Below are positions 1,246-42,027 of a stretch of 64,000 bases of DNA, piece after piece. The notes beneath the pieces were generated by a model. The model did not search any database, was not told the DNA's origin, and worked only from the letters and a program-made list of their open reading frames with translations. Positions within the stretch are counted from its first letter, which is position 1. Every line of letters begins with the position of its first letter. Both the position numbers and the translations under genes were made by a program. The DNA is from a virus. Taxonomy: Duplodnaviria > Heunggongvirae > Uroviricota > Caudoviricetes. Location of the stretch: IMG/VR virus record IMGVR_UViG_3300035184_001394, positions 1-64,000 of that record; one strand, given 5' to 3'.

Positions 1246-1574
1246 TTTGTTTCCTTATTTCATTAAGATATAGCTTTCTAGCTAGAGCAATTGTATCACT
1301 AAATAACAGTACAATCCATTCCAACAACTAAATCTTTAGCTTCAACCCATTCTTCGTTAACCAAGAATTTATGTTTATCTGAAACAGTTGCTTTAAATCC
1401 ATCTTCAAATTCAACTTCATAACATTCTGGATTGCCATCTTCAAGTGTATCAGGGTTCCAAACATGACTTACAACTTTATCACCGTTTAGAGTAATAACT
1501 TTTTCGCCAACATTGAAGTCTTCAACATTCTTAAGACCATCTGGTGTTTGAATTTCTGTGCCTTCAACTACGCA
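1129..1574 (-). mobile_element. naturally split mini-intein in uvsX (Int-N 1302-1574, 53-bp gap containing a stop and an RBS, Int-C 1129-1245); no endonuclease domain
   Basis: Cys1 sits after the extein GG, block B TxxH-like motif is present, and the terminal HN is followed by Thr+1. The insertion lies exactly inside the conserved UvsX GG|TG motif. The halves are 91 aa and 39 aa, similar in size to DnaE-type split inteins. Confidence 0.75.
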
Positions 1575-2204
1575 ACCACCAGATACAATATTCTTAGGAA
1601 ACATACCAATTTCTTGATAGATATGATTAACAGCTAAACAAGGAATGTTTCTTGTAGTTAGCTTTGGAGTTATGATGCGAAATAAAGATTTAAGTTGCTT
1701 AGCACGAGTCATATCAGCAGCTGAGTTATCTTTCATAGCATCGTCAACTTCTTTCTTAGAAGCTAAGTTACCGATAGAATCGATCATGATGAATACACGA
1801 TCTTTCTTATCAATCTGGTCTAATCGCTTAACGATATCAAATTTAAGCTGTTCAACATCTTCGATTGGAATATGTAGTACACGTGACGTATCAATATCAA
1901 AACTTTCTAAATAATCTGGTGTAATACCAAATTCTGAATCATACAACAAAGCAACACCATCTTTATATTTTTCAAGATATGCTTTCATACAATACAGTGA
2001 TAGTAGAGTTTTGAAACTTTTTGATGCACCAGCGACAACAGTTAGACCTGGGATTAAACCACCTTTAAGTGAACCACTAAAAGCGATATTCACAATTGGT
2101 AATTCAGTCTGAATTGGTTCTTTTTCGTCAAAGAAAGCAGATTTATTTACAACACCAGCTTGTTTGATTGAACCGGATTTTAACATTTTATCTAAAAGAC
2201 TCAT
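1299..2204 (-). CDS. uvsX: UvsX recombinase, N-terminal fragment: RecA-like core N-extein (210 aa) followed by a 91-aa split-intein N half
   Basis: RecA/UvsX core motifs present (VVAGASKSFKT P-loop-like, VFIMIDSIGNLASKKE). At ..KNIVSGG|CVVEGTEIQTPDG the Hint block A begins, with block B at TVSDKHKF. The ORF ends at TAG 1299-1301. Confidence 0.85.
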   Translation of the reverse strand: MSLLDKMLKSGSIKQAGVVNKSAFFDEKEPIQTELPIVNIAFSGSLKGGLIPGLTVVAGASKSFKTLLSLYCMKAYLEKYKDGVALLYDSEFGITPDYLESFDIDTSRVLHIPIEDVEQLKFDIVKRLDQIDKKDRVFIMIDSIGNLASKKEVDDAMKDNSAADMTRAKQLKSLFRIITPKLTTRNIPCLAVNHIYQEIGMFPKNIVSGGCVVEGTEIQTPDGLKNVEDFNVGEKVITLNGDKVVSHVWNPDTLEDGNPECYEVEFEDGFKATVSDKHKFLVNEEWVEAKDLVVGMDCTVI

Positions 2205-4436: not shown

Positions 4437-5114
4437 TTAAATTTCTTCAAATAAAACGTTATTAATATATCTATCTTTAGCTTGTTCTGATATGCCCATA
4501 GCAAGTATAGATCTATGCAGGTGCTTATTCATCTTCTGATTTTCACAATATTTGTTAAGTTGAGTTTTAGTTGGTAAGGTAGTAATCATTTTAATATCAT
4601 TGCAAGAAGCCAAATAAGCCTTAATAAGGTTAGTAGATAAACAAATCAACTGTTCTAACTCATCACCATAAGTGATAGAACCAGCAGCAACCATGTTGTC
4701 TGAGAATATTTCAGTAGCCCATTCAGGTAAATCTCTTGGTTTATTCCATTTAATATCCTTAACAGACGCTTTAAACAGTTCGCATAATGGATGAACTTGA
4801 TCTTTTATAACAGGAGAAAAGTCAAAAAACGAACCACTTATTTTAGTTTTAGATGCAACTATATCAAAACCAAGAATAGGTAAGTTAACATTTTCTCTTG
4901 GAAATATATTGATATGTAGCAACCACATTCTACCATCGTTAATCGTTTTCAAATGACACTTTCTAATGTTATCACTACACCAGAAAGAATCAGTCCACCC
5001 ATCGAATTGCTGATCATGTTTTTCGTTTATAAACGGTTTTAAATGATTATTAAACGTTTCGCTAAGACTTGATGCAAATGTATCAAGTTTATCCCAGAGT
5101 GGATTGATATCCAT
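4437..5114 (-). CDS. ferredoxin-dependent bilin reductase, PcyA/PcyX-like
   Basis: IRKCHLKTINDGRMWLLHINIFPRENVNLPILGFDIVASKTKISGSFFDFSPV matches the FDBR core (PcyA: FRKMHLE...LHCVMFP...LPLFGCDIVAG...DLSP). Start overlaps the heme oxygenase stop. Confidence 0.75.
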   Translation of the reverse strand: MDINPLWDKLDTFASSLSETFNNHLKPFINEKHDQQFDGWTDSFWCSDNIRKCHLKTINDGRMWLLHINIFPRENVNLPILGFDIVASKTKISGSFFDFSPVIKDQVHPLCELFKASVKDIKWNKPRDLPEWATEIFSDNMVAAGSITYGDELEQLICLSTNLIKAYLASCNDIKMITTLPTKTQLNKYCENQKMNKHLHRSILAMGISEQAKDRYINNVLFEEI

Positions 5115-5689
5115 TATAGATCATCAACTTCAAAATCTTCACCTTCAAAATTATCAACTAATTCTAAAAATAATAGCTCTGCAAACTTAAAACAGACAAT
5201 AGCTTCTGGGGCCATATCATTATTTAACATACTACGAAGATCTGTGATCAACTGTTTGCGACCAGTAAACTCATACATTGTACCAGAACCAGGGACTCTC
5301 TTTTTGATTATTTGACCACCATGTAAATCACCAAAATGCCGAACGTACAGATGAGCTAATAGCTTATCATGTTCTCCTTTTGCGCTAAGCTCGGTTATAT
5401 GACTAATATATGAACTAACTGATTCGAGGTTTTCGGTTATTTCTTCAAGTCCATACTCATCTTCAAGTCCATGCATATCTTGCATTATATGAGAAGCTCG
5501 AAAAACAGTTTTAAGTTTTGACGGAATTGTCACTAACGACTCAAGTGCTTCATAAATCTCATACTGGGCCGAGAGATACTGGTAATATAGTAGTGGATTT
5601 ATTCTTCCGCCTAATAATATTTCAGCAAAATCTGAGCCTTCTATATTATTATGATTCTCTTTGGTCAGTTCTCTTAAGTTTAGTGTCAT
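5114..5689 (-). CDS. heme oxygenase
   Basis: N-terminal LRELTKENHNNIE (proximal His context) and HFGDLHGGQIIKK (HO signature GDLSGGQ). Confidence 0.85.
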   Translation of the reverse strand: MTLNLRELTKENHNNIEGSDFAEILLGGRINPLLYYQYLSAQYEIYEALESLVTIPSKLKTVFRASHIMQDMHGLEDEYGLEEITENLESVSSYISHITELSAKGEHDKLLAHLYVRHFGDLHGGQIIKKRVPGSGTMYEFTGRKQLITDLRSMLNNDMAPEAIVCFKFAELLFLELVDNFEGEDFEVDDL

Positions 5690-12597: not shown

Positions 12598-15138
12598 TTA
12601 GCAAAAGAATTCATCAAGCGTGTCGCGTTTTTCAGCAGACCAACCTATTGCTTCAACAATTGCTCGAACTGGTGCAAGAAATACTTTCTCGAATTGCAGA
12701 TCGTAATCTATGTACTTGTCTAAACCCAATTCTTGTGGTAACACGCCCGGGAACGATACAATATTTTCGCGTAATGGATTTGGAACTTTCAAATACAGAA
12801 CTTTAACTTTATCTCCACCAATTATATGTTGATACTGTTTAGCTAAACCAGAATCATCTATCATCTTATTATATAGCAAAGCACCACGAACATGGAATGG
12901 ACAACCCTTTTTGTATATTGATTTTTTATCAGAATATTTACCAATATTATCAGTACCTGACGTCTTAGCTACAGAGTGAGCAGGTAACGAATAAAACTCA
13001 GATTTGAAGTCGCTAATAAACTCTTGAACATCTTCTTCACTACCATTCATAATTACTTCGAAAGACTTTTTCATTTTATCGCGACAGACTTGAGGTGTCG
13101 AAGATCGAACAGATTCTAAACCAGTCACAGAGATTTTAGGTTTATCATAATGAACACCTTCACTGTTTAACGTATTCATGATATAACGCTTCTTAGCTAT
13201 AAACACTGATTTATCTGTAATCTTTTCGCGCTTCATTACCATAGCATTACGATAGGCGCCTAAGTCTTTTGCTAAATTAACATAACCATCTTCGATTACT
13301 TTTTCAATTTTAGTACCACAAATCTTATCAAGGAACTGTTCTCCTTCATCACGAGAAATATCAGTTGTACCAAAAGCAGCTTCTATTAATGGACCAAAGT
13401 CTACATATATAGAATCCGTATCAATATAAACAATATAATCTTTGGATGTTGACTTGAGTATTTTATTCAAGTATTCATTAACTGATTTTTCAGCACAACG
13501 AATTGCCAACTGGCCTGACGTAGTAATTGCTTCAGCCATATCATTAATATAATACAAGAAGTAGATATTTGCGACAGCACCGTAAAGGCTGTTCATGGCG
13601 ATCTTTATAGCCATTTGCTGGTTATGTAATTGACTGGCTTGTTTCTTAAGTTCTTTTAGTTTAACGGGATCTTTTTCTATTTCAACTAACTTTTCAACTT
13701 CAAGCATTTCTGTCTTAATAACTTTACGATTACCATAATAAGTTGCGATTATTTCAGGGATAACACCGAGTTTATTATTATCAAAACACGAGCCATTAGC
13801 ACCAACTGACATATCTTTATTATTATTCTTATATTCACGGTTTAAAACCATTTCTTGAGTAACATATTCGTGTTCGTGTGGAAGATATGTTTCTGGTGAC
13901 ATGTTAAATTGCATCATCAAATGCGGATACAGACTGTTTAAATCGAATGATACAATCCACGGATGCATCCCAACTTTGGGATCTTTAACAAAACCACCAA
14001 CAAGATTAGAGCGAATTCCAGGGCTACCTTTAACTGGAGGTACAATCTTATCTTTAATAAGTTTGCGGTAAATTGTACTTTCCCATATACCAACAGTACC
14101 AAATGCATCATTATAGTTTACACCACCTGAATAAGCAACAGTCATAACTAATGATAGTAAACCAGTTTCTTCTTCGAATCTTTGAATAAGTCGAGTATCT
14201 TGTAAGTTATAATCTAAATATAACTGTGGATTTTGTTCATACAAATCAGTAAGAGTACCATAAGCAGAATAATCTAATTTCTTTTCACCAAGTATGACGT
14301 GAGCAATATGATCAAGTTTAAATGATTCCTGAGGACCATACTTATAACCAAACTTTTTAAACGCATCCATGTAATCAATTATTGATATACCAGATATTGA
14401 ATAAGTTGATTGTTCTTTACCAAAGAATTCGCGAGATGTCTTTTTTATTGATCTCCAAGGAGAGAAGTCACGGGCTTTTTCTTCACCAAACAGTCGCATC
14501 ACTCGAGTTACAATATACATAATATCGAAGTATTCAACATTCCAACCGGTAACTACATCAGGATAATCAGCTTTCCATAAGTCGATAAAACGAGATAACA
14601 TTGCTACTTCACTTTCGAATTTAACAAAGACAATATCAGCTGGATCAATACCGGTTATAGTCTTAGTTTTATCGAAGTCTTTACGACCTAACAGAAAATA
14701 TTTGTTAGACTTAGAAGACTTGTATGATATAGAAGTTATTTCTTTATCAGCTTCTTCAATATTTGGATAGCCATCTGATATATCAACTTCAATATCGAAT
14801 GAGCATATGTTAACTAGTGAAATATCAAAAGTAATATCGTCAGGATATTCTTCTTGAATAAACTGAGATACATAGTTAGTGTTACCGTATATTTTGAAGT
14901 TACTCACTTCCTTATAAAGTGCAATAAATTCTTTAGCGTCTCCCATTGAATCAAACTTTTGTGGATTCAATCGCTTATCGCTATATAGTGATTTGTAATC
15001 TCCTTCTGATTTCTTAGTGTGTAAATAAAGTGTTGGACCAAATGGAACACGCTCTGAAAAACGTTCGCCATCTTTGTATCCGCGCCACAGCATATTATTG
15101 CCATATCTTTCAACTGATGTATAAAAATTATTACTCAT
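12598..15138 (-). CDS. 43: DNA polymerase gp43 (family B)
   Basis: Exo motifs FDIEV, GWNVEYFDIMY and YNLQDT. Pol motifs SFDLNSLYPHLM (DxxSLYP), KIAMNSLYGAV (KxxxNSxYG) and YIDTDSIYV (DTDS). Confidence 0.95.
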   Translation of the reverse strand: MSNNFYTSVERYGNNMLWRGYKDGERFSERVPFGPTLYLHTKKSEGDYKSLYSDKRLNPQKFDSMGDAKEFIALYKEVSNFKIYGNTNYVSQFIQEEYPDDITFDISLVNICSFDIEVDISDGYPNIEEADKEITSISYKSSKSNKYFLLGRKDFDKTKTITGIDPADIVFVKFESEVAMLSRFIDLWKADYPDVVTGWNVEYFDIMYIVTRVMRLFGEEKARDFSPWRSIKKTSREFFGKEQSTYSISGISIIDYMDAFKKFGYKYGPQESFKLDHIAHVILGEKKLDYSAYGTLTDLYEQNPQLYLDYNLQDTRLIQRFEEETGLLSLVMTVAYSGGVNYNDAFGTVGIWESTIYRKLIKDKIVPPVKGSPGIRSNLVGGFVKDPKVGMHPWIVSFDLNSLYPHLMMQFNMSPETYLPHEHEYVTQEMVLNREYKNNNKDMSVGANGSCFDNNKLGVIPEIIATYYGNRKVIKTEMLEVEKLVEIEKDPVKLKELKKQASQLHNQQMAIKIAMNSLYGAVANIYFLYYINDMAEAITTSGQLAIRCAEKSVNEYLNKILKSTSKDYIVYIDTDSIYVDFGPLIEAAFGTTDISRDEGEQFLDKICGTKIEKVIEDGYVNLAKDLGAYRNAMVMKREKITDKSVFIAKKRYIMNTLNSEGVHYDKPKISVTGLESVRSSTPQVCRDKMKKSFEVIMNGSEEDVQEFISDFKSEFYSLPAHSVAKTSGTDNIGKYSDKKSIYKKGCPFHVRGALLYNKMIDDSGLAKQYQHIIGGDKVKVLYLKVPNPLRENIVSFPGVLPQELGLDKYIDYDLQFEKVFLAPVRAIVEAIGWSAEKRDTLDEFFC

Positions 15139-30669: not shown

Positions 30670-30921
30670 ATGTTTAATTTTACACTAGGTAACGACAAGT
30701 TTTTAATAGAAATTAATTACATTTCAGGTATACAGAAGCGCTTTTGGGTATACAGTTTTAATATGAGTAATGGAAATGTAAATAATTGCAACTATGTCTC
30801 TGACTTAAACAGACCAATAGATATTTTTGCTGGTGATAAATACGAAAATAAAATAGAATCAATATATCAAATTGGTTATAAACGCGGCCTATTAAGTTTT
30901 TTAAAAGGGAAAAATAAATGA
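30670..30921 (+). CDS. hypothetical protein (83 aa)
   Basis: ORF track; ATGA overlap with the next gene. Confidence 0.45.
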   Translation: MFNFTLGNDKFLIEINYISGIQKRFWVYSFNMSNGNVNNCNYVSDLNRPIDIFAGDKYENKIESIYQIGYKRGLLSFLKGKNK

Positions 30922-31403
30922 GTAATGATTTAGTAAAAGACATTAGTGAAATGCACCAAAAGTTTGGTGTAAACGACTGGTTTGAAAAGAATAAACACGA
31001 CAAAGTATTAATGAAAGAATTCCTTAGATTCCGTATTAACATGTGTCTTGAAGAATTGCTTGAAACAGCAACTGCAGCCAACTTAGTGCTACATACTGAT
31101 ATTCAAGAAGGTCTAGTGTTTAAAGAATCTCAAAACAACGATTTGTGTATTGATTCTGAAGAAGTAGTAGATGGCTTAATCGATCTTTCTGTGTTCGCTA
31201 TTGGTACATTAGACGTGTTTAATGCTGATGCAAACAAAGCTTGGGATGCTGTATACGATGCGAATATGGTTAAAGAATCTGGTGTTAAACCTGGTCGCCC
31301 AAATAAATGGGGTCTTCCTGATATGATAAAACCGAAAATGGAAACACATGGCTACGACTGGGTAGCTCCATCTCATGAAGGTAATCACGGAGATTTTAAA
31401 TGA
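30918..31403 (+). CDS. MazG / PRA-PH-like all-alpha NTP pyrophosphohydrolase
   Basis: FRINMCLEELLE (EExxE-type metal site), VVDGLIDLSVFAIGT (second acidic helix), then ..VYDANMVK...GKP..KP..W..P tail as in MazG-like phage enzymes. Confidence 0.6.
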   Translation: MSNDLVKDISEMHQKFGVNDWFEKNKHDKVLMKEFLRFRINMCLEELLETATAANLVLHTDIQEGLVFKESQNNDLCIDSEEVVDGLIDLSVFAIGTLDVFNADANKAWDAVYDANMVKESGVKPGRPNKWGLPDMIKPKMETHGYDWVAPSHEGNHGDFK

Positions 31404-31681: not shown

Positions 31682-32101
31682 ATGAAATACGATAACGGTA
31701 AAACAGATTTATCATTGATACCACCAGAAGTCTTAGTTGACATTGCGTGTGTATTAGGCTTTGGTGCAAAGAAATATGGTAGGGATAATCACCGCTTTGA
31801 TGCTGGAGAAACTGAATGGAGTAGAGTATATGCTTCAGCCCAACGCCACTTGCATGATTTTTGGTCAGGTGAAGATTTTGACCCAGAATCTGGTCAGAAA
31901 CATATAACACACGCAATTACCCAATTGATTATTCTTGCAACTGCAATTAACGATGGCCATACGAATATGGATGACCGGTTTTTTACAAAATTAAAACAGT
32001 TAAGCACTACAGAAAAACCAAAACCCGACAGTCTCTTAGATACTAAAGCAACTAAACATGCACCCTATGTATATTTAAAGTCTCGGGAGATTATTGAATA
32101 A
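31682..32101 (+). CDS. dNTP diphosphohydrolase-like protein (KYDxGK...FGAxKYG family, MazZ-related N-terminal domain)
   Basis: MKYDNGKTDLSLIPPEVLVDIACVLGFGAKKYGRDN...SAQRHLHDFWSGEDFDPESGQKHITHAI matches the pattern I associate with the dATP/dGTP diphosphohydrolase N-terminal domain family. Confidence 0.5.
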   Translation: MKYDNGKTDLSLIPPEVLVDIACVLGFGAKKYGRDNHRFDAGETEWSRVYASAQRHLHDFWSGEDFDPESGQKHITHAITQLIILATAINDGHTNMDDRFFTKLKQLSTTEKPKPDSLLDTKATKHAPYVYLKSREIIE

Positions 32102-32850
32102 TGATAGTTGAAGATATACGTAAATACTTTAAAGAAGAACTTGCTGCAGAACGTTTCACTATTGATAAAACTGGTGCTAAAACGATCGAGTTGTTAGGTG
32201 CTAGCTTTATTGCTGATGAACCTGCTATTTTTGGTATTCCTAATCAAGAATATATTGATGCTGAAATAAAATGGTACAATAGTTGTTCTACTAATATTAA
32301 TACATTAGAAAAAATTTATGGTAAGAAACCAGCTGCGTGGGCTTACTCAGCAAATTCTTATGGCGAAATCAATTCGAATTATGGTCATCTTTTGTTTGAA
32401 CCAAAGTACTATAATCAATTTGAAAATGCTGTAAAAGAACTAATCAATAACCCTGATAGTAGACGTGCTCAACTAACATACACTAGACCTTCTGTATGGG
32501 TTGATTTTAACGAAAGCGGCAAAAACGATTTCATATGTACTTTAGGTCAACTGTTTTATATACGTGATAATAAATTACATATGGTAAGCATGATGCGAAG
32601 CAACGACTCTTGGGCTGGTTATCGCAATGATTATGCTTGGGCTAAATATCTTATGGAACTCGCTGTTAACGAATACAATGTTGGATGTGAAAATACTCCT
32701 ATTGCTATTGGTAATCTGTATTGGCAAGTAGCCAATATGCACATATATGAAAGAAATTTCTATTTAGTTGATTATTATTCAAAAACAGGTAAATTTCATA
32801 TTTCTAAACCCGACTATGCTGCAAAATATCCGAATAGTCAATATAATTAA
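32101..32850 (+). CDS. 42: deoxycytidylate 5-hydroxymethyltransferase (T4 gp42-like)
   Basis: Collinear with T4 gp42 as recalled: FTIDKTGAKTIELLGASFIADEP.IFG, GEINSNYG, NPDSRR, NDFICT (catalytic Cys), MRSNDSWAGYRNDYAW (Asp of RNDYAW = cytosine-specifying residue), HIYERNFYLVD, GKFHISKPDY. Confidence 0.85.
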   Translation: MIVEDIRKYFKEELAAERFTIDKTGAKTIELLGASFIADEPAIFGIPNQEYIDAEIKWYNSCSTNINTLEKIYGKKPAAWAYSANSYGEINSNYGHLLFEPKYYNQFENAVKELINNPDSRRAQLTYTRPSVWVDFNESGKNDFICTLGQLFYIRDNKLHMVSMMRSNDSWAGYRNDYAWAKYLMELAVNEYNVGCENTPIAIGNLYWQVANMHIYERNFYLVDYYSKTGKFHISKPDYAAKYPNSQYN

Positions 32851-32911: not shown

Positions 32912-33364
32912 ATGTGTGATAAGTGGCATAAACGTTACCTTCATTTAGCAAAGAATATTGCTTCATGGAGCAGAGATCCTTCTCGTAAAATCGGAGCAGT
33001 TGCTATTGGTTCTAAAGGTCAGGTATTAGCTCAAGGTTTCAATGGATTCCCTCGGGGTATTCGAGATACTGAAGAAAGATATAATGACCGCGAGACTAAG
33101 TATAAATATGTCGTACACGCTGAAATGAACTGTATATATAACGCTACGTATAGTGGTGTTAGCCTTGATGGTAGTTCATTATATGTGCATGGTTTACCAG
33201 TTTGTTCTGAATGCGCTAAAGGTATTATTCAAACTGGAATCAAAGAAGTATTTTGGTCTGCTGATGAAGAAATACCAGTAAGATGGTGTGATGCTTATAA
33301 GATAACAAAGAATATGCTTCTAGAAGCTGGCATAAATATAACATATGTAAACATAGGAGAATAA
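32912..33364 (+). CDS. cd: dCMP deaminase
   Basis: Cytidine/deoxycytidylate deaminase zinc motifs VHAEMNCI and PCSECAKGI. Confidence 0.85.
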   Translation: MCDKWHKRYLHLAKNIASWSRDPSRKIGAVAIGSKGQVLAQGFNGFPRGIRDTEERYNDRETKYKYVVHAEMNCIYNATYSGVSLDGSSLYVHGLPVCSECAKGIIQTGIKEVFWSADEEIPVRWCDAYKITKNMLLEAGINITYVNIGE

Positions 33365-33367
33365 AAA

Positions 33368-33730
33368 TTGGAAGATGATTTATTACCAACAATAAGTGCG
33401 GTTATATTACTACCAGAGAGTAGATCTGACGTAACAAGATATGTGTTGATTGGAGATTTTAAATATGCTGGATTTGAAGTTCCAAGTGGGTTTGTGACTG
33501 ACGGTTTGACTATACCAAGGATATTTTGGAGCATACTACCACCCATTCACAGATACTTTCCTGCAGCCATAATTCATGATTATCTATTAACACAAGTATC
33601 TCGCGTAGAAGCTGACAGAGAGTTTAAGATTGTACTGAAAAAGCTAAATATATCTAGAGTGCGTAGATTTTTAATGGCTGCCGCAGTAAGATTATATTCA
33701 ACAATACTAAAAATATTAAATAAAAGTTGA
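33368..33730 (+). CDS. DUF1353-family protein (TTG start)
   Basis: FEVPSGFVTDGLTIPRIFW...AAIIHDYL...EADREF...R..MAAAVRLY fits the DUF1353 pattern. Confidence 0.6.
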   Translation: MEDDLLPTISAVILLPESRSDVTRYVLIGDFKYAGFEVPSGFVTDGLTIPRIFWSILPPIHRYFPAAIIHDYLLTQVSRVEADREFKIVLKKLNISRVRRFLMAAAVRLYSTILKILNKS

Positions 33731-33755
33731 CATTATAATCAACTTGTGATATAGT
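33727..33755 (+). promoter_or_regulatory. early sigma70-type promoter of the six-gene operon
   Basis: TTGACA-17-TATAGT. Followed by an atypical ~80-nt GC-containing leader rather than the standard leader. Confidence 0.65.
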
Positions 33756-33837: not shown

Positions 33838-35118
33838 ATGTCTAAAATTAATATCGCTATTGCCGGCGTCGGTAATTGCTCATCAGCACTTATTCAAGGT
33901 GTAGAATACTATAAAGAAAATCCAGAAGATACCATAGGTCTTATGTTTGAAGACATCGGTGGTTTTTCTGCTAAAAACTTTAATTTTGTTGTTGGATTTG
34001 ATGTCGATGCCCGTAAAGTTGGCCAACGATTAAATAACTCAATCTATGCTAAACCAAATTGTAACATGGAAGTATATCCTCCAAGTCATAATTTGACTTG
34101 TATAGCATCTAAATCGACAGTATACAGATCGCCAACATTTGATGGTATAGCACCTCACATGCACGATTTACATCCTGATATATCCTTCGTAGAAGATACA
34201 GAAACTCTGGCTATCACGGCTAATGAATACATTCAAATTCTTAAAGATAACAAAGTTGATGTATTACTTAACTATATGCCAGTTGGTTCTGAAACAGCAG
34301 CTCGTTGGCACATTGAAAATGCTATTCGCGCAGGTGTCCATATTGTTAACTGTATGCCAACATATATATCTACTAAAGATGCAATGGAACTTGAGAGACT
34401 TGCTATCGAACATGGCGTAACAGTTGTTGGTTCTGACATGCGTTCTGATTACGGCGCGTCACGTTTATCTGAGGTGTTACAAGGTTCAATTATGGATTCT
34501 GGATTGTTGGTTACTCAACACATCCAAGAAAACAAAGCTTGTGGAACTACTCAAGGTGATATGCGCCGTACTGGTCGTACTGCAAATACTGACTTCTTAA
34601 ACATGGCAACTAAAGATCGTTTAAAAAATAAACATATCTCTAAAGAAAATGTTTTAAATGGTCAAGCTGCTGTACGTGGTAAAGATATTGCTGGTCTTAC
34701 AATGTATGCTGGTCCGTCACTTACAGTTTTCCAAAAACCAGGTGATGAATACATTGGTTCAGATAATAAGATTGCTAATATTGATATGGTATTCTGGGGA
34801 TGGGCTGGGGCTCGCTATGAATTGACTGCTCGTTTATCTGTTCAAGATTCTCCTAATAGTGCTGGAATTGTATTTGATGCAGTTCGTTTTTGCAAAGTTG
34901 CTGCTGAGATGGGTATTGTTGGTTACTTACGTGGTCCATCGGCACACTCTCAAAAGACACCACCAACTCAGCTAAAAACTGCTGATTCAAAATTCGAATG
35001 CGAAGCATTAGCTCGTAGGATTTTAACTGATCTTACTCGTCCGCAACTCGCCGAAAATTACCCACAAGTTGAAGATTTGCTTTATACATTCCAAGCTGAT
35101 ACTTCAGATTACGAATAA
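33838..35118 (+). CDS. myo-inositol-1-phosphate synthase family enzyme (bacterial Ino1 type)
   Basis: INIAIAGVGNCSSALIQGVEYY, FVVGFDVDARKVG, VDVLLNYMPVGSE, TDFLNM, RLKNKHISK, LSVQDSPNSAGIVFDAVRFCKVA and KTPPTQL are collinear with actinobacterial Ino1 as recalled. Confidence 0.8.
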   Translation: MSKINIAIAGVGNCSSALIQGVEYYKENPEDTIGLMFEDIGGFSAKNFNFVVGFDVDARKVGQRLNNSIYAKPNCNMEVYPPSHNLTCIASKSTVYRSPTFDGIAPHMHDLHPDISFVEDTETLAITANEYIQILKDNKVDVLLNYMPVGSETAARWHIENAIRAGVHIVNCMPTYISTKDAMELERLAIEHGVTVVGSDMRSDYGASRLSEVLQGSIMDSGLLVTQHIQENKACGTTQGDMRRTGRTANTDFLNMATKDRLKNKHISKENVLNGQAAVRGKDIAGLTMYAGPSLTVFQKPGDEYIGSDNKIANIDMVFWGWAGARYELTARLSVQDSPNSAGIVFDAVRFCKVAAEMGIVGYLRGPSAHSQKTPPTQLKTADSKFECEALARRILTDLTRPQLAENYPQVEDLLYTFQADTSDYE

Positions 35119-35132
35119 AGGAAAAATATATT

Positions 35133-35510
35133 ATGAATACTTTTGATATTGATGGTGTGATTTATATGGGTAAAGACCATGACGGCGTTTACCCTGGGCC
35201 GAACGACTTGATTATTACTGGTCGTTCTATTGAAGAAAAACCAGAAACTATTAGGATGCTGCAGCAGAAAGGGATTAATAATAAAGTTTATTTTAATCCC
35301 TTACCATTTAAACAAAAGACCAGAGAAAGTTCTGGTCACCATAAAGCAGACATCATTTCAGCTCTTATTACATTAGGTTGTCCTATAGATATCCACTTTG
35401 AAGATGATCCAATACAAGCTGATATAATCAAAAAGGTTACATCAATTCACGTTGTATTATTAAACCACAACTTAACTGAAAAGGAGAATATGCGCCATGG
35501 GGGATACTGA
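35133..35510 (+). CDS. HAD-superfamily phosphatase (small, capless)
   Basis: Motif I FDIDGV, motif II IITGRS and motif IV HFEDDP. Confidence 0.55.
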   Translation: MNTFDIDGVIYMGKDHDGVYPGPNDLIITGRSIEEKPETIRMLQQKGINNKVYFNPLPFKQKTRESSGHHKADIISALITLGCPIDIHFEDDPIQADIIKKVTSIHVVLLNHNLTEKENMRHGGY

Positions 35511-36240
35511 AATGTATAAAGGCTATAAAATTAGAACAGGCCCGGGTATTGATCGTGATATGATTCGCGATTCACTAAAACATTATAGCCACTTCTCACT
35601 TGATAAAAAATCAGTAGTGCTTGATCTTGGTTCTAATATTGGTGGATTTACTAGGATGGCAAACGAAAAAGAAGTTAAACAATACATAGCAGTAGAACCA
35701 GATCCAGAAAATATGGAATTAACAACTGTTAATTCCATAGACGGAAGTAATAACTTATATTTGTTGGGTGTAGCCTCTATTTCTGAATCAGAACATTTAA
35801 CGTTTTTTCAATCTAATGCTGTAAGATCAAAATGCTCTGGAACTATTAATAGTAAAAGTCAAACAGCTACTAGAAAGAATGGCACTGCATACGATGTTGT
35901 TAATTATAATGTGTATGAACTGTTGGAAAAATATAAACCTACTCATGTCAAATGTGATATAGAAGGAGCAGAAATTGATTGGTTAGCTGATTGCGAAGGT
36001 ATATTTCCAGACTATATTCAGGAGTTGGCGTTTGAGTTGCATGGTAGAGCTGGTATAGTAGAACTCGAGCGATATTACGATAATATAATTGAACATTTTG
36101 AAATAGTTAGTTTTGTTCCATCTGTTGGGTTTAAAGGCAGTTTTAATAAAAAAGACGCTGTACTGTATGAAAAAGTTGGATATACAACAGAAGGTACTTT
36201 GTGGAGCATAGACTTATTCTTGCGTAGAAGAGTAAAATAA
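35497..36240 (+). CDS. FkbM-family SAM-dependent methyltransferase
   Basis: VVLDLGSNIGGFTRMA (motif I), AVEPDPENMELT and HVKCDIEGAEIDWL (FkbM signature iDvEG.E). An alternative start exists at 35512. Confidence 0.7.
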   Translation: MGDTEMYKGYKIRTGPGIDRDMIRDSLKHYSHFSLDKKSVVLDLGSNIGGFTRMANEKEVKQYIAVEPDPENMELTTVNSIDGSNNLYLLGVASISESEHLTFFQSNAVRSKCSGTINSKSQTATRKNGTAYDVVNYNVYELLEKYKPTHVKCDIEGAEIDWLADCEGIFPDYIQELAFELHGRAGIVELERYYDNIIEHFEIVSFVPSVGFKGSFNKKDAVLYEKVGYTTEGTLWSIDLFLRRRVK

Positions 36241-37406
36241 TGATTGATGGTACACATAAATCATACGAAGTACCTAAAGGATTTAAATCTGCTGACTCAA
36301 ATTATCCACTGGATAAATATTTTGATTTGTGCGACGTTGAGAAATTTCTTGACTTTAAATATTTTGTATGCGAAGTTAATAAGAGATCGGAATGGCAAAG
36401 GGGTCTTATTACAACATACGATTATAAAGAGTATGCTCTTAATCCAAATACAGAATACTTTCATCCGATGATTACATACGACGATCGTATGGTTTATATC
36501 GCTGAAAATATAGTAGGATTATCAAGCGACACTTTATCTCTACACAATAAGATTGGTAACACAATTATATCTCACTTCTATGGAGCTAGAGGTATTCACC
36601 AGATTGCCACTCGTAATAATGACGTTAAAACTGCTCATGTTGATTTTGAAAACTATTTTACTACTGACGAGCGCTCTCGTATACGAGAAAATTTAAAACT
36701 TTCAAAAATTGCTGGTTTGCCTATATATGGTTCTACTGAATTGCGTACTTCTCTCTGGGGTGCTGCAAACAAATATCAACAAAGCCGTTTTAATGTTACA
36801 ACCGAAGAAGAAAGAAAGCACCCTGGAAATATTATGGATTGGGTAGCTGGTTTATGCGAAGATGGAACTTTTGATCGTTTAATTAGTTGTAATTCTATTA
36901 AAGAAGCATTTAATGAACTCACTTCTAACGCTGGTATTGGAAGTTATTATGGATTCCATTGTGCTACTTCAAATTCAGTAAACCCTGAGTTGAACTGGAC
37001 TAATGATGATAACTTCGTTAAACCTGGACCTGGTGCTCAATATACTTTAAAGTTGATGTTTCCAAACGCAACAAATAAGTTAATTAACAGTGGCGATCTT
37101 GTTATATGGTTTAGACACAATCAAAAGTTCTTTGGTTTTGGCGATATTGAAATCCATGAATCTGCTCATAATATTTTAAATTTTGAAGGCAAAAAGATTC
37201 TTGAAAAAGATCAAACCGAAATGATGACTTATGGTTCTGAGGTTGCTATGTGCCAATATGGTATTTTTTGTAAGTTGCGCGAAGATAAAAAAGCTTGCGA
37301 TAGACGTAAAGTTGCCCGTATAGGAGATAGAAACATTGAAAAAATGCTAAATATGGCTGAGCAAGAACAAATTTCTCAAGCAGCATTTCAACAATTTTTT
37401 ACATGA
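36240..37406 (+). CDS. alpha-glutamyl/putrescinyl-thymine pyrophosphorylase (aGPT-Pplase)-like putative DNA base hypermodification protein
   Basis: NAGIGSYYGFHCATSNSVNPELNWTNDDNFVKPGPGAQYTL resembles the G.G.F.AYE...DL......D...W...GPGAQRG block I recall from this family. Based on memory only, so tentative. Confidence 0.4.
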   Translation: MIDGTHKSYEVPKGFKSADSNYPLDKYFDLCDVEKFLDFKYFVCEVNKRSEWQRGLITTYDYKEYALNPNTEYFHPMITYDDRMVYIAENIVGLSSDTLSLHNKIGNTIISHFYGARGIHQIATRNNDVKTAHVDFENYFTTDERSRIRENLKLSKIAGLPIYGSTELRTSLWGAANKYQQSRFNVTTEEERKHPGNIMDWVAGLCEDGTFDRLISCNSIKEAFNELTSNAGIGSYYGFHCATSNSVNPELNWTNDDNFVKPGPGAQYTLKLMFPNATNKLINSGDLVIWFRHNQKFFGFGDIEIHESAHNILNFEGKKILEKDQTEMMTYGSEVAMCQYGIFCKLREDKKACDRRKVARIGDRNIEKMLNMAEQEQISQAAFQQFFT

Positions 37407-37413
37407 GGTAAAT

Positions 37414-38517
37414 ATGAAAACAATTATAGCAGCACCATTCATCCCTATGTCGTTTCAGATAACGAGTCATAGGGCAGCACAAGGAATTATATATGCTGAT
37501 TTGCTTAAACACTATCACACAGACGATATTTCAGTAAGCTTATCTAGACCAAGCGTACAAGGTCCCGAAGCTAAAGAATCAAACAAAACAGAAGATTTTA
37601 ACGAATATGATAGATTATATATCTATCATGGTAATGATCGTAAAGCAGACGCTGGTGATCTAAACTTTTTTGGTGGAACTCGAAATTTCCCTCATGCTTA
37701 CAATATTAGAAATATTTCTAAATTTAAAGGTGAAGTTTATTCTATTGGATATGATATGCCTGATTATGCTACTATGTTAGAGCACAAGATTACTGGCCAT
37801 GAAAAGCGAGATGGTACACTTGACACAATGGTTCCTGAATTTCTCGAAGTTGATATTGATAATTTAAGAGCAATGCAAGAAAGAGCGATCACAATTATAC
37901 CACAACATCCTAGTTGGAGCGGTTTAGTGATCGGTGATAGTCATGCTATTTGTATGTATCGTGAAGGATATAATGTTAATTCAGTTCCGTTTAAAACTTT
38001 GTATGGAGCCTTAGAATTAGGCTTAAAAAGTTTCATAAATAAAAATGACATTAAGGATATTGAATGTTACTTTGGTAACATTGATATACGTCATCACATT
38101 TGTAGACAGGACGATCATAAACAAGCTATTAGAGATCTTGTTGATCGTTATGTCGACCAAGTCGATTCTTTGGATATGGAAAGTAAAGTGATCTATGAAC
38201 TATTACCTATCGAAAACGAACGCAGAAATCTTCCAAAAAGCGGATGGTATCTTGGTGAGAAATTTCATGGTACGTGGGCTGAGCGTAACGCAGCAAGACT
38301 TTACTTTAAAGAATACTCAATGAAAAGAGTTCAAGGAACGAGTGTTGAATTTCGTGAATGGCTCACTCCATCGTATTATAATGAATTAGGTGAACTTGAT
38401 TTTAAAGCTATGGAGCGACCAAAATCAGTTCATTTATCTCGTGAATACTATCCTCATTGGCAAGGACTTGAATACAATAAAATTAATAAAACAACAATTG
38501 AGGATTTTTTTCAATGA
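37414..38517 (+). CDS. two-domain protein: unknown N-terminal domain + SGNH/GDSL-hydrolase-like C-terminal domain
   Basis: GLVIGDSHAICMY (GDS block I) at residue ~170 and a later GNIDIRHH. The N-terminal 170 aa have no recognised motif. Confidence 0.35.
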   Translation: MKTIIAAPFIPMSFQITSHRAAQGIIYADLLKHYHTDDISVSLSRPSVQGPEAKESNKTEDFNEYDRLYIYHGNDRKADAGDLNFFGGTRNFPHAYNIRNISKFKGEVYSIGYDMPDYATMLEHKITGHEKRDGTLDTMVPEFLEVDIDNLRAMQERAITIIPQHPSWSGLVIGDSHAICMYREGYNVNSVPFKTLYGALELGLKSFINKNDIKDIECYFGNIDIRHHICRQDDHKQAIRDLVDRYVDQVDSLDMESKVIYELLPIENERRNLPKSGWYLGEKFHGTWAERNAARLYFKEYSMKRVQGTSVEFREWLTPSYYNELGELDFKAMERPKSVHLSREYYPHWQGLEYNKINKTTIEDFFQ

Positions 38518-39740
38518 AGCACGCAACGATCATACCACTTATAGGAGGCGAAGCACTAGCATCTACTGAAGTATTTGGAACTAAACCAGAATACATTTTG
38601 TCTTATAAAGGATTTGAAAACAATGAAAAACACTTACTAAACTATTGGAATAACGAAGTACCCTATCATGTACTTGACGATGAGAACAGTATTGCTCCTA
38701 AAAATATTAATGAGAAAGTTGATGTTATATCGAGTGTCTGTCCTTGTGCTGGATTAAGTCAATATCATTCTAAACACGGAGCTGAAAATCAAAATAACCA
38801 ATGGATGGAGAAAACAGCCAAGCATATTCTAGAAACCGTACAACCGAGTGTATTTTGGGGAGAAAATGCTCCTGCTCTTGTTGGTAAGATCGGTGAGTTT
38901 ATGTTAACTAAACTACGTAAAATTGGCCTCGATAATGGATACTCTATGGGTCTATATCTTACTAAGAATATTAAACATGGTATTCCACAATTTCGTAAAC
39001 GCACTTTCTATTTCTTCTGGAAGAAAAGCGAGTTTGGTGATACTGCACCAATGCTTAAATTTATTAACAAAGAACACACAAAAATTGAAGATGTAATTAT
39101 GAGCGCTACTGGTAGTACACAGTTAGAACCAATTAATTCTAAAATTCCAAGCAAAGACGATCCTTACTATAGATATCTTCTTGAAGTAATTCATGGTGGT
39201 ATTACGCATAGAGAATATTTTGAGTTATTAAAAACTAAAAATGTTCGAGGCAACGATGTAGAATCTATTATTATAAATTCAGGTCACGATTATATGATGG
39301 TTGGTGAATGGATGGAAAAAAATGGATACGACAGAGAAGTTCCAAAATGTGAACGAAAATATCATAAGCTAAAAGATGGTGGCAATATAATGCGACGTGG
39401 CACTATTATTCCTAAAGATTATATTGGAGCTTTTGTTGGTCATTATCCGACAGTTCTTACTCATCCATATGAAGATCGTTATATTAATTATCGCGAAGCA
39501 ATGACTATTATGGGATTACCACAAGATTACGAATTGTTAGACCCTAAAAAATCTGCTAATCATATTTGTCAGAATGTTCCATTACAAACTGCTAAAGATA
39601 TGGTGTTAGAAATTAAAGCTGTTTTCGAAGGAAAGCGCCAATTTTCTGATACTGATTTTTTATTACAATCTAACATAAACGAAACATCCAGAACTTTGAA
39701 TATACCAGATAAAGAGCAAAGTTTAGAATCATTTTTCTGA
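38514..39740 (+). CDS. DNA (cytosine-5) methyltransferase-fold enzyme
   Basis: Motif I-like IIPLIGGE, motif IV SSVCPCAGLSQ (PC dipeptide), motif VI GENAPAL, motif VIII IPQFRKRTFYF and motif X CQNVPLQTA. ATGA overlap with the upstream gene. Confidence 0.7.
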   Translation: MKHATIIPLIGGEALASTEVFGTKPEYILSYKGFENNEKHLLNYWNNEVPYHVLDDENSIAPKNINEKVDVISSVCPCAGLSQYHSKHGAENQNNQWMEKTAKHILETVQPSVFWGENAPALVGKIGEFMLTKLRKIGLDNGYSMGLYLTKNIKHGIPQFRKRTFYFFWKKSEFGDTAPMLKFINKEHTKIEDVIMSATGSTQLEPINSKIPSKDDPYYRYLLEVIHGGITHREYFELLKTKNVRGNDVESIIINSGHDYMMVGEWMEKNGYDREVPKCERKYHKLKDGGNIMRRGTIIPKDYIGAFVGHYPTVLTHPYEDRYINYREAMTIMGLPQDYELLDPKKSANHICQNVPLQTAKDMVLEIKAVFEGKRQFSDTDFLLQSNINETSRTLNIPDKEQSLESFF

Positions 39741-39748
39741 AATGATTG

Positions 39749-39777
39749 TTGACATTTAAACACAAACATGTTATAAT
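39749..39777 (+). promoter_or_regulatory. early sigma70-type promoter
   Basis: TTGACA-17-TATAAT. Confidence 0.75.
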
Positions 39778-39805: not shown

Positions 39806-40438
39806 ATGAAAAAAGAATTATTAATAGATTTCGAAACATTAGGAATAAATCCTGAAAATTGCGTAGTACTCGACTGCTCGATTATTATCTTCGACAGAGA
39901 GAGATTCACATCTGATAAACCGTACACAGTAGCGGATATTACTGAAACTAAAACATTTAAAATATCTGTTACTGATCAGGTTAACAATTACAATTATGCT
40001 GTTGAAAACAGTGTTATTGAATTTTGGTCTAAACAAGATAAAGAAGTGCGAGCAAAAATTAAGCCGCTACCAACTGATCTTACTGTTAAGGAATTTACTG
40101 ATCAGTTTCTCAACTTAGTTTCTCAGCACAAAATTAGTTATTGGTGGTCTCGTGGAAACACGTTTGATCCACCTATTCTAACTAGAATTTTTGATGATCA
40201 AGGTAAGAAAAATGAATTAAATAAGAATTTAAAATATTGGGCAGTAAGAGATATGCGCACGTTTATTGACGCAAAACTCGATTTCCCGAAAGAAAATGGT
40301 TTTTCTCCTTTTGAAGATGAAGTAAAATGGGGGAAAATATTTAAAAAGCATGATAGCTCTTGGGATGTTTTAGCTGATGTTTTAAGATTACAAGCGATCG
40401 CGAGAGCCGAAGATGATTTGGAACAAGTGAAATTATGA
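39806..40438 (+). CDS. dexA: exonuclease A (DexA, DEDD 3'-5' exonuclease)
   Basis: LLIDFETLG (ExoI), EFWSKQDKEVRAKI, WWSRGNTFDPPIL, YWAVRDMRTFI and HDSSWDVLADV parallel T4 DexA (IIDFETMG, EWWKNQSPEARKNI, GMSFDFPIL, FWNQRDIRT, HDSIHDCAKD). Confidence 0.8.
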   Translation: MKKELLIDFETLGINPENCVVLDCSIIIFDRERFTSDKPYTVADITETKTFKISVTDQVNNYNYAVENSVIEFWSKQDKEVRAKIKPLPTDLTVKEFTDQFLNLVSQHKISYWWSRGNTFDPPILTRIFDDQGKKNELNKNLKYWAVRDMRTFIDAKLDFPKENGFSPFEDEVKWGKIFKKHDSSWDVLADVLRLQAIARAEDDLEQVKL

Positions 40439-41286
40439 AGATAGAAGCGACAATTGAACAATTAAGAGGAGCATCACTTTTTATTGGCGCACCAATGTAT
40501 GGAGGTAATTGCTCTGGTTTATTCACTAAATCTTGTACTGACTTATCTTCAATATGCGCGCTTAACGGAATTAAATTACAATACTATTTCTTATTCAACG
40601 AAAGTTTAGTTCAAAGAGCGCGAAATTACGTTACTGACGAATTTATGCGTTCTGGTTGTACTCATCTAATGTTTATAGACTCAGACATTGGTTTCGATGC
40701 TAGAGATGTTCTACACTTATTAAGCCTTCAGATATTAGATCCCAAGTATGATGTAATAACTGGACCTTATCCTAAGAAAACAATAGCTTGGGAAAAAGTT
40801 AGTAAAGCAGCTAAACTCGGCCATGGCGCAGAAAACCCCTTTGAATTAGAGAAATTTACAGCTGATTTCGTATTCAACCCAGAAGACAATAAAAATAGTT
40901 TTAATCTCGGTGAACCAATTAAAGTTAAAGAAGCAGGAACTGGTTTCATGTTAATTCCTCGCGTAACTCTTGAAAAATATCAAGAAGCTTATCCTGAAAT
41001 GAATTACAAACCAGACCACTTGCGATCTGAATCTTTTGACGGAGCTCGTAATATTACAGCATTTTTTGATTGTATTATAGACCCTAAGACGAAACGTTAT
41101 TTGTCTGAAGATTATTTCTTTTGTCATAAGACTCGTGAAGCTGGGATGAGTGTTTGGATGTGCCCTTGGATGCAAATCAACCATGTTGGTTCTTATATAT
41201 TTAGAGGCAATATGGCTGCGATTACTCAGTTGGGTGTTACTGCAACAGCAGACAATTCTGGTCAAAAGAAGAATTATAAAAAATAA
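40435..41286 (+). CDS. GT-A-fold glycosyltransferase-like protein
   Basis: Rossmann-like N-terminus (LFIGAPMYGG), NESLVQRARN and DxD motif THLMFIDSDIGF. ATGA overlap with dexA. Confidence 0.5.
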   Translation: MKIEATIEQLRGASLFIGAPMYGGNCSGLFTKSCTDLSSICALNGIKLQYYFLFNESLVQRARNYVTDEFMRSGCTHLMFIDSDIGFDARDVLHLLSLQILDPKYDVITGPYPKKTIAWEKVSKAAKLGHGAENPFELEKFTADFVFNPEDNKNSFNLGEPIKVKEAGTGFMLIPRVTLEKYQEAYPEMNYKPDHLRSESFDGARNITAFFDCIIDPKTKRYLSEDYFFCHKTREAGMSVWMCPWMQINHVGSYIFRGNMAAITQLGVTATADNSGQKKNYKK

Positions 41287-41364: not shown

Positions 41365-42027
41365 ATGAAATTTTCTGAAAGAACTATCACGATCCTTAAA
41401 AGTTTTTCTTCTATTAATAAGTCAATATTAATGCAAGAAGGTCAAACTATTAAAACGATTACTCCTGAAAAGACACTTATCGCAAGTGCCAATATTCCTG
41501 AGACAATTCCATCTCAAGCTTGCATATACGACTTATCAAGATTCTTGTCAATCTTGAGTTTGTATAGCGATCCGGATGTTAAGTTTAATGATACTCACTT
41601 TATTATATCGGAAGGTAAGCGCAGAACAAAATATATATATGCTGATGTTTCGATGATTCACACGCCACCAGCTAAAGAAATCAAGATTCCAACACAAGAC
41701 GTCGTTGTTGATGTTAAATGGGACGATCTTCAATCTGTTCTTAAGGCAGCTGGTGTTTTGCAGTTCTCTGAAGTTGCATTTGTCGGAGATGGCGACAAAT
41801 GTTATCTTAAAGCAATTGATAGTTCAACCGAAGGTGCAGACGATTATGGAGTTGAAATCGGCGAGACTGGCGACACGTTTAAGATTATAGTTAAAACAGA
41901 TAACCTTAAATTATTACCGCAAGATTACAGCGTTACTATTTGTGCTAAGGGTATATCTGAATTTAAAGGTAATGAAGTTACGTATTTCGTTGCTATTGAT
42001 TCTAAGTCAACTTACATTAAAGGATAA
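41365..42027 (+). CDS. 45: sliding clamp gp45
   Basis: MKFSERTITILKSFSSINKSILMQEGQ...ACIYDLSRFLSILSL parallels T4 gp45 (MKLSKDTTALLKNFATINSGIMLKSGQ...VAIYDLNGFLGILSL). 220 aa. Confidence 0.85.
   Translation: MKFSERTITILKSFSSINKSILMQEGQTIKTITPEKTLIASANIPETIPSQACIYDLSRFLSILSLYSDPDVKFNDTHFIISEGKRRTKYIYADVSMIHTPPAKEIKIPTQDVVVDVKWDDLQSVLKAAGVLQFSEVAFVGDGDKCYLKAIDSSTEGADDYGVEIGETGDTFKIIVKTDNLKLLPQDYSVTICAKGISEFKGNEVTYFVAIDSKSTYIKG

Follow-up and report, generated by a model that had tools for sequence, protein, structure and literature searches.

A C5-methyltransferase-fold protein with altered cofactor motifs and a polymerase-like C-terminal tail, associated with the predicted hydroxymethylcytosine pathway of T4-like phages

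Cytosine-C5 DNA methyltransferases (C5-MTases) such as M.HhaI and M.HaeIII (Pfam PF00145) share a fold, an order of motifs, a catalytic Cys, an ENV-type Glu and the two arginines of an RxR motif. The same features are found in a protein of 408 residues encoded at positions 38514–39740 of a 64,000-nucleotide stretch of phage DNA (IMG/VR record IMGVR_UViG_3300035184_001394, positions 1 to 64,000; hereafter the window). This protein, which we call the MTase-like protein, nevertheless differs from M.HhaI and M.HaeIII in reading IPLIGG instead of FxGxG, PCA instead of PCQ and Gln instead of Asn304, in scoring below the cutoff of the profile TIGR00675 and in ending in a clamp-type tail, and its gene sits in genomes that are predicted to be without unmodified cytosine. 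On the phage's newly made DNA, the enzyme probably has a task other than routine methylation. Tentatively, we regard it not as an everyday anti-restriction methylase but as a replisome-tethered enzyme of the C5-MTase fold, a dedicated and conserved part of the 5-hydroxymethylcytosine (hmC) module, that would act by Cys-C6 catalysis on hmC to exchange the substituent at C5.

Other described systems resemble this one in part. The phage DNA cytosine C5-carboxymethyltransferase CmoX (PDB 8yf3), which shares the C5-MTase fold and is among the structural matches to the MTase-like protein, adds a non-methyl C5 group as a handle for hypermodification (PMC12783734). CmoX has Arg350, an SPPC motif, the residues Phe25, Glu47 and Asp69 for carboxy-S-adenosylmethionine (Cx-SAM) and a CmoA encoded next door, whereas the MTase-like protein has Gln353 and CPC, and no CmoA was found among the window open reading frames (ORFs) scanned. 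A carboxymethyltransferase of the CmoX type was rejected on these three grounds: the absence of an Arg at the Asn304 position, of SPPC and of CmoA. Gene clusters from metaviromes that combine a C5-MTase, a TET dioxygenase and glycosyltransferases (PMC8256090) are similar in that a phage C5-MTase-fold gene lies near glycosyltransferases for 5hmC, with decorated hmC as the final product. There the TET dioxygenase forms hmC post-replicatively from 5-methylcytosine (5mC), whereas here hmC would be made before replication by a homolog of T4 gp42, so that a methylase step is not needed for hmC. No match to TET/JBP or to a 2-oxoglutarate (2OG) oxygenase was found in the operon of the MTase-like gene or in the other window ORFs scanned, and together with the timing of hmC synthesis this led us to reject a TET-coupled cluster.

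The working analogy for the proposed exchange comes from the amino-acid:DNA transferases of 5-hydroxymethyluracil (hmU) modification, where attack of a Cys on C6 of a 5-(oxy)methyl pyrimidine gives an exocyclic methylene to which a nucleophile is added, and in this way drives substitution at phosphorylated hmU in DNA (PMC8989533). The likeness extends to the operon of the MTase-like gene, which includes a protein with the helical domain of the 5-hydroxymethyldeoxyuridine (5-hmdU) DNA kinase HMUDK, with no P-loop kinase recognized here. The transferases differ in having an unrelated, glycosylase-like fold with helix-hairpin-helix elements and in acting on phosphorylated hmU, not hmC. T4 alpha-glucosyltransferase, an early modifier of nascent hmC DNA that binds the sliding clamp gp45 (PMC13216743), has homologs encoded directly upstream of the MTase-like gene in many relatives, but it is a glycosyltransferase working on the hydroxyl group, with another fold and another chemistry.

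Fold, catalytic residues and cofactor motifs

The gene and its motifs are:

38514–39740, plus strand: C5-cytosine methyltransferase-fold gene, 408 amino acids (ORF list, PF00145, AlphaFold2 model, Foldseek)
38532–38549, plus strand: motif I, I7-P8-L9-I10-G11-G12 (IIPLIGGE being residues 6–13), aligned by hhalign to M.HhaI F18-A19-G20-L21-G22-G23
38739–38759, plus strand: motif IV, CPCAGLS, residues 76–82, with Cys78 as the predicted C6 nucleophile and Ala79 in place of the canonical Gln (alignment to M.HhaI C81/Q82)
38862–38873, plus strand: motif VI, ENAP, residues 117–120, Glu117 being equivalent to M.HhaI Glu119 and kept in 103/103 homologs
38988–39002, plus strand: motif VIII, QFRKR, residues 159–163, Arg161 and Arg163 being equivalent to M.HhaI Arg163 and Arg165, both kept in 103/103
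39570–39581, plus strand: motif X, QNVP, residues 353–356, Gln353 (101/103) being equivalent to M.HhaI Asn304 and CmoX Arg350 (HMMER, hhalign)

The ORF at 38514–39740 and the motifs IIPLIGGE, CPCAGLS, ENAP, QFRKR and QNVP had been reported in a first-pass annotation of the window, and all of them are confirmed at the level of sequence. The protein matches PF00145 with an E-value of 5e-21 and 75.9 bits, above the cutoff of 22, and reaches 39.5 bits against NCBIfam TIGR00675, below the cutoff of 100.65. An AlphaFold2 model built from an alignment of 103 homologs has a mean predicted local distance difference test (pLDDT) score of 94.5, and its best Foldseek matches, with probability 1.0, are M.HhaI, M.HaeIII, DNMT1/MET1 and CmoX; the target-normalised TM-score to the M.HhaI and HaeIII chains is 0.63–0.71. 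Alignment of the family with an M.HhaI-type profile by hhalign gives a probability of 99.7 and an E-value of 7e-26. The likeness to C5-methyltransferases is thus well past chance, and the fold is a two-domain one with a Rossmann-like catalytic domain. A phmmer search of PDB sequences with the whole protein and with its C-terminal 101 residues gave nothing useful.

Conservation was counted in an alignment (A2) of 103 diverse family members of 29–75% identity. Residue equivalences are taken from sequence alignments, by HMMER to HaeIII and HhaI and by global profile-profile hhalign to the M.HhaI-type profile, for which the M.HhaI reference sequence was checked against the database copy and found to be 100% identical. 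The hhalign equivalences to M.HhaI are I7=F18, P8=A19, L9=G20, G11=G22, G12=G23, C78=C81, A79=Q82, W97=L100, E117=E119, R161=R163, R163=R165 and Q353=N304.

Motifs IV, VI, VIII, IX and X follow one another as in C5-MTases, with the Pro-Cys pair, the ENV-type Glu and the RxR arginines all present. Invariant or nearly so are P8, L9, G11, G12, P77, C78, E117, N118, A119, P120, Q159, R161, R163, Q353, N354, V355 and P356, and the nucleophile Cys78 is kept in 102 of the 103 homologs. Because Cys78, Glu117, Arg161 and Arg163 are conserved and align with their M.HhaI counterparts, the machinery for covalent attack at C6 and for handling the cytosine ring is, as judged from these alignments, intact in the family.

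The cofactor region looks different. Motif I had been described as atypical in the first-pass annotation, and the family alignment bears this out: IPLIGG stands against FxGxG, F18 is replaced by I or V and G20 by L (102/103), and only G22 and G23 are kept. The conservation of the altered motif is itself high, with P8 in 103/103, L9 in 102/103, G11 in 103/103 and G12 in 101/103 sequences. The departures from C5-methylases that are fixed in the family are F18 to I/V, G20 to L, Q82 to A and N304 to Q. Motif X reads C-Q-N-V-P, without the canonical Gly-Asn whose Asn304 lies next to the transferred methyl group. Three of the fixed, family-specific changes, at the first motif I glycine, at the Gln after the catalytic Cys and at Asn304, surround the cofactor or the transferred group. 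In CmoX the Asn304 equivalent sets the group that is transferred and is changed to Arg for carboxy-SAM (PMC12783734). No Pfam, NCBIfam or PADLOC C5-methylase profile aligns with the motif I/II region, matches beginning at or after residues 31–43. After beta-2 comes S30-Y31 followed by a variable position, and the canonical acidic residue (M.HhaI Glu40) is not in place in an alignment that is uncertain here; a conserved N37-[D/E]38 follows an insertion of 4–6 residues and falls within a predicted helix. By these comparisons the MTase-like protein belongs to the C5-methyltransferase fold but fails in two of the cofactor motifs that define it. The features diagnostic of the family are PL-GG, PC[A/S]GLS, ENAP, Q[N/G]VP and a C-terminal LExFF.

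The predicted hydroxymethylcytosine pathway, the family and the clamp-type tail

The genes of the window that bear on cytosine replacement are:

30918–31403 and 31682–32101, plus strand: two MazG-type nucleoside triphosphate (NTP) pyrophosphatases, candidate dCTPase (domain matches)
32101–32850, plus strand: dCMP hydroxymethylase (T4 gp42 homolog) with the L143D/D169/N177D signature (match to PDB 1b49)
32912–33364, plus strand: dCMP deaminase

The thymidylate synthase (TS) homolog at 32101–32850 matches T4 gp42 (PDB 1b49) with an E-value of 6.6e-71 and about 50% identity, and it has Asp at the positions of E. coli ThyA L143, D169 and N177, which is the signature of a 5-hydroxymethyl-dCMP (5hm-dCMP) synthase (L143D/E, D169 and N177D; PMC13326640). 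Some gp42-like enzymes make 5-hydroxy-dCMP and are diagnosed by Asn at the ThyA D169 position (2026, PMC13326640). Of the related loci that could be scored here, 133/133 have the hydroxymethylase signature, and a 5-hydroxycytosine pathway of the RB69/RL38J1 type was ruled out as Asp169 is kept in the window and in all of them. A pathway to hmU, hinted at by a neighbouring PF18723 protein, was ruled out by the Asp at the N177 position and the similarity to gp42. PF01503 co-occurs with TS homologs on modified-cytosine contigs (MetaGPA, PMC8670742), and the window set of TS homolog, MazG-type genes and dCMP deaminase corresponds to the MetaGPA domain network of such contigs; the main text of that paper makes no mention of methyltransferases. 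An Endo IV homolog is encoded in one relative (locus L005 of our set). The first-pass premise that hmC stands in for C thus gains support at the gene level from the gp42 homolog signature, the MazG-type pyrophosphatases and the dCMP deaminase, and the prediction that the phage replaces C by hmC in its DNA is, in genetic terms, well supported.

The MTase-like family comprises 2,495 homologs at E ≤ 1e-3 in a collection of 5.8 billion sequences, with at least 754 cluster representatives at 50% identity. Those members whose origin was checked derive from metagenome assemblies (JGI/IMG, ENA, Logan and Tara) and carry automatic names only. By megablast the locus matches none of 50,697 deposited phage genomes, among which the window has no close DNA relative, and we found no paper on a C5-methylase-like family that is tied to hmC phages or has clamp-binding tails. 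About 180 related loci were fetched for a comparison of gene neighbourhoods. Every MTase-bearing aquatic T4-like locus that reaches far enough upstream has the hydroxymethylase, mostly accompanied by the deaminase and a MazG-type gene; searched from the hydroxymethylase side, the MTase-like gene lies 1.5–5 kb downstream in most loci. Downstream of it, most loci have a glycosyltransferase A (GT-A)-like gene (phrog_1574) and then gp45. The gene directly upstream differs, being a 367-residue partner in the window lineage, a homolog of T4 alpha-glucosyltransferase (phrog_2888, E 2e-90) in many lineages and phrog_14998 in the rest. In the related loci L083 (5870–6451) and L071 (7322–8047), 2OG-Fe(II) oxygenase-like ORFs lie shortly upstream of the hydroxymethylase.

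The association extends beyond the aquatic T4-like phages. The ThyA annotated in cyanophage S-TIM5 (JQ245707, 140905–141741; locus L001, 5766–6602) carries Asp where E. coli has N177 and Cys where it has L143; this ThyA is predicted to be dCMP-specific, which makes C5-modified cytosine in S-TIM5 DNA probable. In Pseudoalteromonas phage XG4, a TS homolog 5 kb upstream of the MTase-like gene has Asp in place of N177. In Bacillus phage G (JN638751, 219303–234494; loci L186/L187) the MTase-like gp301 lies within 14 kb of gp319, gp317, gp306 and gp313. The first of these, annotated as a thymidylate synthase, has the full 5hm-dCMP-synthase signature, and the cluster also holds the dCMP deaminase gp317, the annotated alpha-glucosyltransferases gp306 and gp313 and the sugar nucleotidyltransferase gp309; phage G is on this basis predicted to have glucosylated hmC DNA. 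The pairing of an MTase-like gene with a dCMP-specific TS in 4/4 unrelated lineages is hard to explain by shared descent alone. The sample for the pairing is made up of the aquatic T4-likes, S-TIM5, XG4 and Bacillus phage G, and more distant members with unknown context lie outside it; the contig of one distant member (P0171) was too short to show its neighbours. The paradox raised in the first-pass annotation, of a C5-MTase in a phage whose DNA is predicted to be built with hmC, is stronger than was stated there, as hundreds of aquatic T4-like contigs and three further lineages share it.

Three features concern the C-terminus of the protein:

39720–39737, plus strand: C-terminal tail S-L-E-S-F-F of the MTase-like protein, a putative gp45-binding motif behind a linker of lower confidence
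41365–42027, plus strand: gp45 sliding clamp, the proposed docking partner (PF09116 on homologs; synteny with gp44 and gp62)
12598–15138, minus strand: gp43 DNA polymerase, with the C-terminus TLDEFFC as the reference clamp-binding tail

The polymerases of T4-family phages, gp55 and gp33 bind gp45 through short hydrophobic-acidic C-termini (PMC2988020). In the window, SLESFF of the MTase-like protein is to be compared with TLDEFFC of the polymerase, TIEDFFQ of the upstream partner and AFQQFFT of the PF18723 protein. The polymerase and the MTase-like protein share the type of tail in 23/23 distinct loci that hold both genes, and in one of these, the divergent locus L164, both tails switch to a different, Phe-rich variant. 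A C-terminus like LxxFF or xLF is found in 70/103 family members against 10/84 background ORFs. In the model, the last two blocks have a lower pLDDT, of 82 and 69, and confidence declines in the linker that precedes the tail. We infer from these comparisons that the MTase-like enzyme is clamp-tethered and works on replicating phage DNA; the pairing of its tail with that of the polymerase in all 23 loci points to nascent phage DNA as the substrate. Three consecutive proteins of the operon have tails of the [S/T]-[L/I]-E-x-F-F type in common with the DNA polymerase, suggestive of a set of DNA-modifying enzymes carried by the sliding clamp as on a toolbelt.

Operon, neighbouring genes and genome background

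The MTase-like gene is the last of six tightly packed genes that code for an inositol-3-phosphate-synthase-like protein, a HAD phosphatase, an FkbM methyltransferase, the PF18723 protein, the SGNH partner and the MTase-like protein. The features around it are:

33727–33755, plus strand: sigma-70-type promoter, 11/12 match, ahead of the six-gene operon
33838–35118, plus strand: inositol-3-phosphate-synthase-like gene (TIGR03450, E 1.6e-58)
35133–35510, plus strand: HAD phosphatase-like gene
35497–36240, plus strand: FkbM methyltransferase gene
36240–37406, plus strand: protein with only the helical domain of the 5-hmdU DNA kinase (PF18723, E 2.4e-12), ending AFQQFFT
37414–38517, plus strand: upstream partner, 367 amino acids, with an N-terminal domain and a domain of the SGNH/GDSL hydrolase-acyltransferase fold, ending TIEDFFQ
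40435–41286, plus strand: GT-A-like protein, phrog_1574, with a DSD motif, next to gp45

The next perfect (12/12) promoter after the site at 33727 is at 39749–39777, past the MTase-like gene. Between 28488 and 41331 there are seven perfect 12/12 TTGACA-N16/17-TATAAT sites, at 29688, 29789, 31610, 32854, 39749 and 41303 on the plus strand and at 28516 on the minus strand, and they resemble early promoters of the T4 type; counted together, promoter-like sites do not exceed the shuffled expectation. An ATGA overlap between the MTase-like gene and the ORF upstream (37414–38517), which the first-pass annotation had cited as translational coupling, is real, with GAGG about 9 nucleotides 5' of the ATG. 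Overlaps of the ATGA type are also found at 32098–32101, 36237–36240 and 40435–40438, and because they are frequent at gene junctions in the window we discount this one as a clue to function.

The first three genes of the operon (33838–36240) vary between lineages, and the phage may use them to make a (methylated) cyclitol or an unusual sugar, possibly destined for its own DNA. No P-loop was noticed on reading the sequence of the PF18723 protein at 36240–37406. The model of the partner has a pLDDT of 91.3 and shows the SGNH/GDSL fold in the conserved half, with invariant GDSH and GN.D blocks, and disproves our initial guess that the partner is a beta-glucosyltransferase. PHROG 17781, a single long profile of 795 positions, is matched by both the PF18723 protein and the SGNH partner, each in its own part. 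The GT-A-like phrog_1574 protein is a candidate for a further DNA glycosyltransferase.

The window as a whole derives from a marine T4-like phage with 32.9% G+C and encodes gp43, gp46/47, UvsW, UvsY, topoisomerase II, gp32, gp59, a split UvsX, gp45 and gp44/62. The split UvsX (703–2204, minus strand) consists of an ORF at 1299–2204 with the RecA core and a Hint_2 match at residues 210–241 and an ORF at 703–1245 with the UvsX C-terminal domain; an intein remnant or a split gene may account for this. Positions 4437–5689 on the minus strand encode an auxiliary metabolic pair, a heme oxygenase next to a ferredoxin-dependent bilin reductase.

Possible reactions and what they would mean

In the mechanism that we tentatively put forward, the SLESFF tail would dock the enzyme on the gp45 sliding clamp and let it scan newly replicated phage DNA, where Cys78 would add to C6 of a flipped cytosine-type base with the aid of Glu117, Arg161 and Arg163. 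The most likely substrate would be hmC or an O-activated form of it, as the DNA is built with hmC. Attack at C6 would expel the 5-CH2-O substituent, as water or after activation by a neighbouring enzyme, to give an exocyclic 5-methylene intermediate, and capture of the methylene by a nucleophile would leave a different C5 substituent. The enzyme would be to hmC as the amino-acid:DNA transferases are to phosphorylated hmU. A C5-MTase has been found to form covalent complexes with 5hmC and to remove its hydroxymethyl group (PMC11347137). Action on hmC would explain both the clustering of changes at the reactive centre and the way the family travels with hydroxymethylases. The first-pass annotation had listed the use of the C6 chemistry of the fold to install a different C5 substituent as one of its options; the changes G20 to L, Q82 to A and N304 to Q and the precedents of CmoX and the hmU transferases fit this option, and the reaction itself we infer. 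In the window lineage the new substituent might derive from the inositol-type metabolite of the operon.

Several observations weigh against this mechanism. Residues that could still build an adenosine pocket are present in G11-G12, D55 (71/103), F34 and W97, and through them the enzyme could still use SAM. The MTase-like gene stays constant while the neighbours that decorate hmC (alpha-glucosyltransferase, phrog_14998, SGNH protein) vary, and no gene that might supply a nucleophile is conserved with it in the compared loci; for these reasons the enzyme may act independently of the decorators. A homolog is found in only 8 of the 50,697 phage records, two loci with a hydroxymethylase and a different gene order (L157 and L160) have no MTase-like gene locally, and the T-even phages manage without such an enzyme. 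We know of no natural hmC derivative that arises by substitution at the 5-methylene.

Some of these points are met better if the protein is a clamp-riding, SAM-dependent C5-MTase of low sequence specificity that methylates cytosines which escaped hmC or were left by partial replacement, as one first-pass option had it; every cytosine in packaged DNA would then bear a C5 substituent. We consider this account doubtful but give it real weight. A protein with all catalytic motifs of a C5-MTase has a high prior of methylating C, the clamp tail suits a maintenance-type scanner, the link to pre-replicative dC modification is accounted for and the constancy of the enzyme beside varying decorators is better explained. 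The retained residues that might bind adenosine also fit, and the altered pocket could keep hmC out and so spare the enzyme the covalent trapping that ordinary MTases undergo (PMC11347137). Less well explained are the Leu at the first glycine of FxGxG (M.HhaI G20) in motif I, the absence of an acidic residue at the end of beta-2 in the model and the change of Asn304 to Gln. In C5-MTases, motif I is not known to lose the first FxGxG glycine. The two NTP pyrophosphatases that adjoin the hydroxymethylase argue for efficient removal of dCTP, and again T-even phages need no enzyme of this kind.

An ordinary site-specific C5-MTase, orphan or host-directed, that serves host DNA or particular phage sites and is unlinked to the hmC pathway is unlikely. 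Source pipelines do label the protein a site-specific DNA-cytosine methylase, the Pfam threshold is passed and the gene is an early one behind a sigma-70-type promoter. Against this, throughout a large clade the gene belongs to the syntenic core of the replication and nucleotide module and its target-recognition region is conserved, unlike a patchy accessory; it is tied to dCMP-specific TS homologs in four lineages, and such an enzyme would have no substrate on fully hmC DNA. The polymerase-like tail would direct the protein to phage replication forks and so disfavours both host DNA, another of the first-pass options, and RNA as targets. Still less expected is a post-replicative hydroxymethylase that would turn residual C in nascent DNA into hmC with a non-SAM one-carbon donor and feed the adjacent glycosyltransferases. 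The remodelled cofactor site, the adjacency to hmC glycosyltransferases and the clamp tail would suit it, but it would duplicate the gp42 homolog, which is present in every case, and no folate-binding features were identified in the protein. To our knowledge such an activity has no natural precedent; in vitro, C5-MTases can reportedly add formaldehyde to C (Liutkeviciute et al. 2009). The reverse reaction is documented (PMC11347137). The least probable account, to which we give very little credence, is an RNA methyltransferase of the Dnmt2 type, making 5-methylcytosine in tRNA, or a non-catalytic protein that flips or binds bases. The C5-MTase fold does include RNA-directed members. The clamp-type tail points to DNA, however, a tRNA target was rejected as the window has no tRNA genes (0 found), and the strictly conserved Cys78, Glu117, Arg161 and Arg163 speak for catalysis.

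Exchange of the C5 substituent of hmC at the fork therefore remains the account that we prefer, tentatively. Taken to its full extent, it would make the family a natural hmC-DNA transferase that has given up plain methyl transfer and exchanges the C5 substituent of hmC or of an activated ester at the fork, and marine T4-like phages would carry an undescribed cytosine hypermodification; this wider claim is possible, and we hold it more loosely still. There is, at any rate, a realistic chance of new chemistry in the family.

What is new here is the pairing with a dCMP-specific TS in four lineages, the polymerase-like clamp tail and a motif I/II region beyond the reach of C5-methylase profiles. 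Either way, the family is now defined and offers a testable target with four independent genomic contexts. If the enzyme methylates leftover cytosines, it would be a phage analogue of DNMT1-PCNA maintenance methylation, by which replacement with hmC is policed after replication. Should hmC be its substrate, the C5-methyltransferase fold would for the first time be seen in nature to exchange substituents on DNA, as a cytosine counterpart of thymidine hypermodification. An unknown base in very abundant ocean phages would be implied, with consequences for evasion of restriction and CRISPR, for biased sequencing of viromes and for the enzymes used as tools to derivatise 5hmC.

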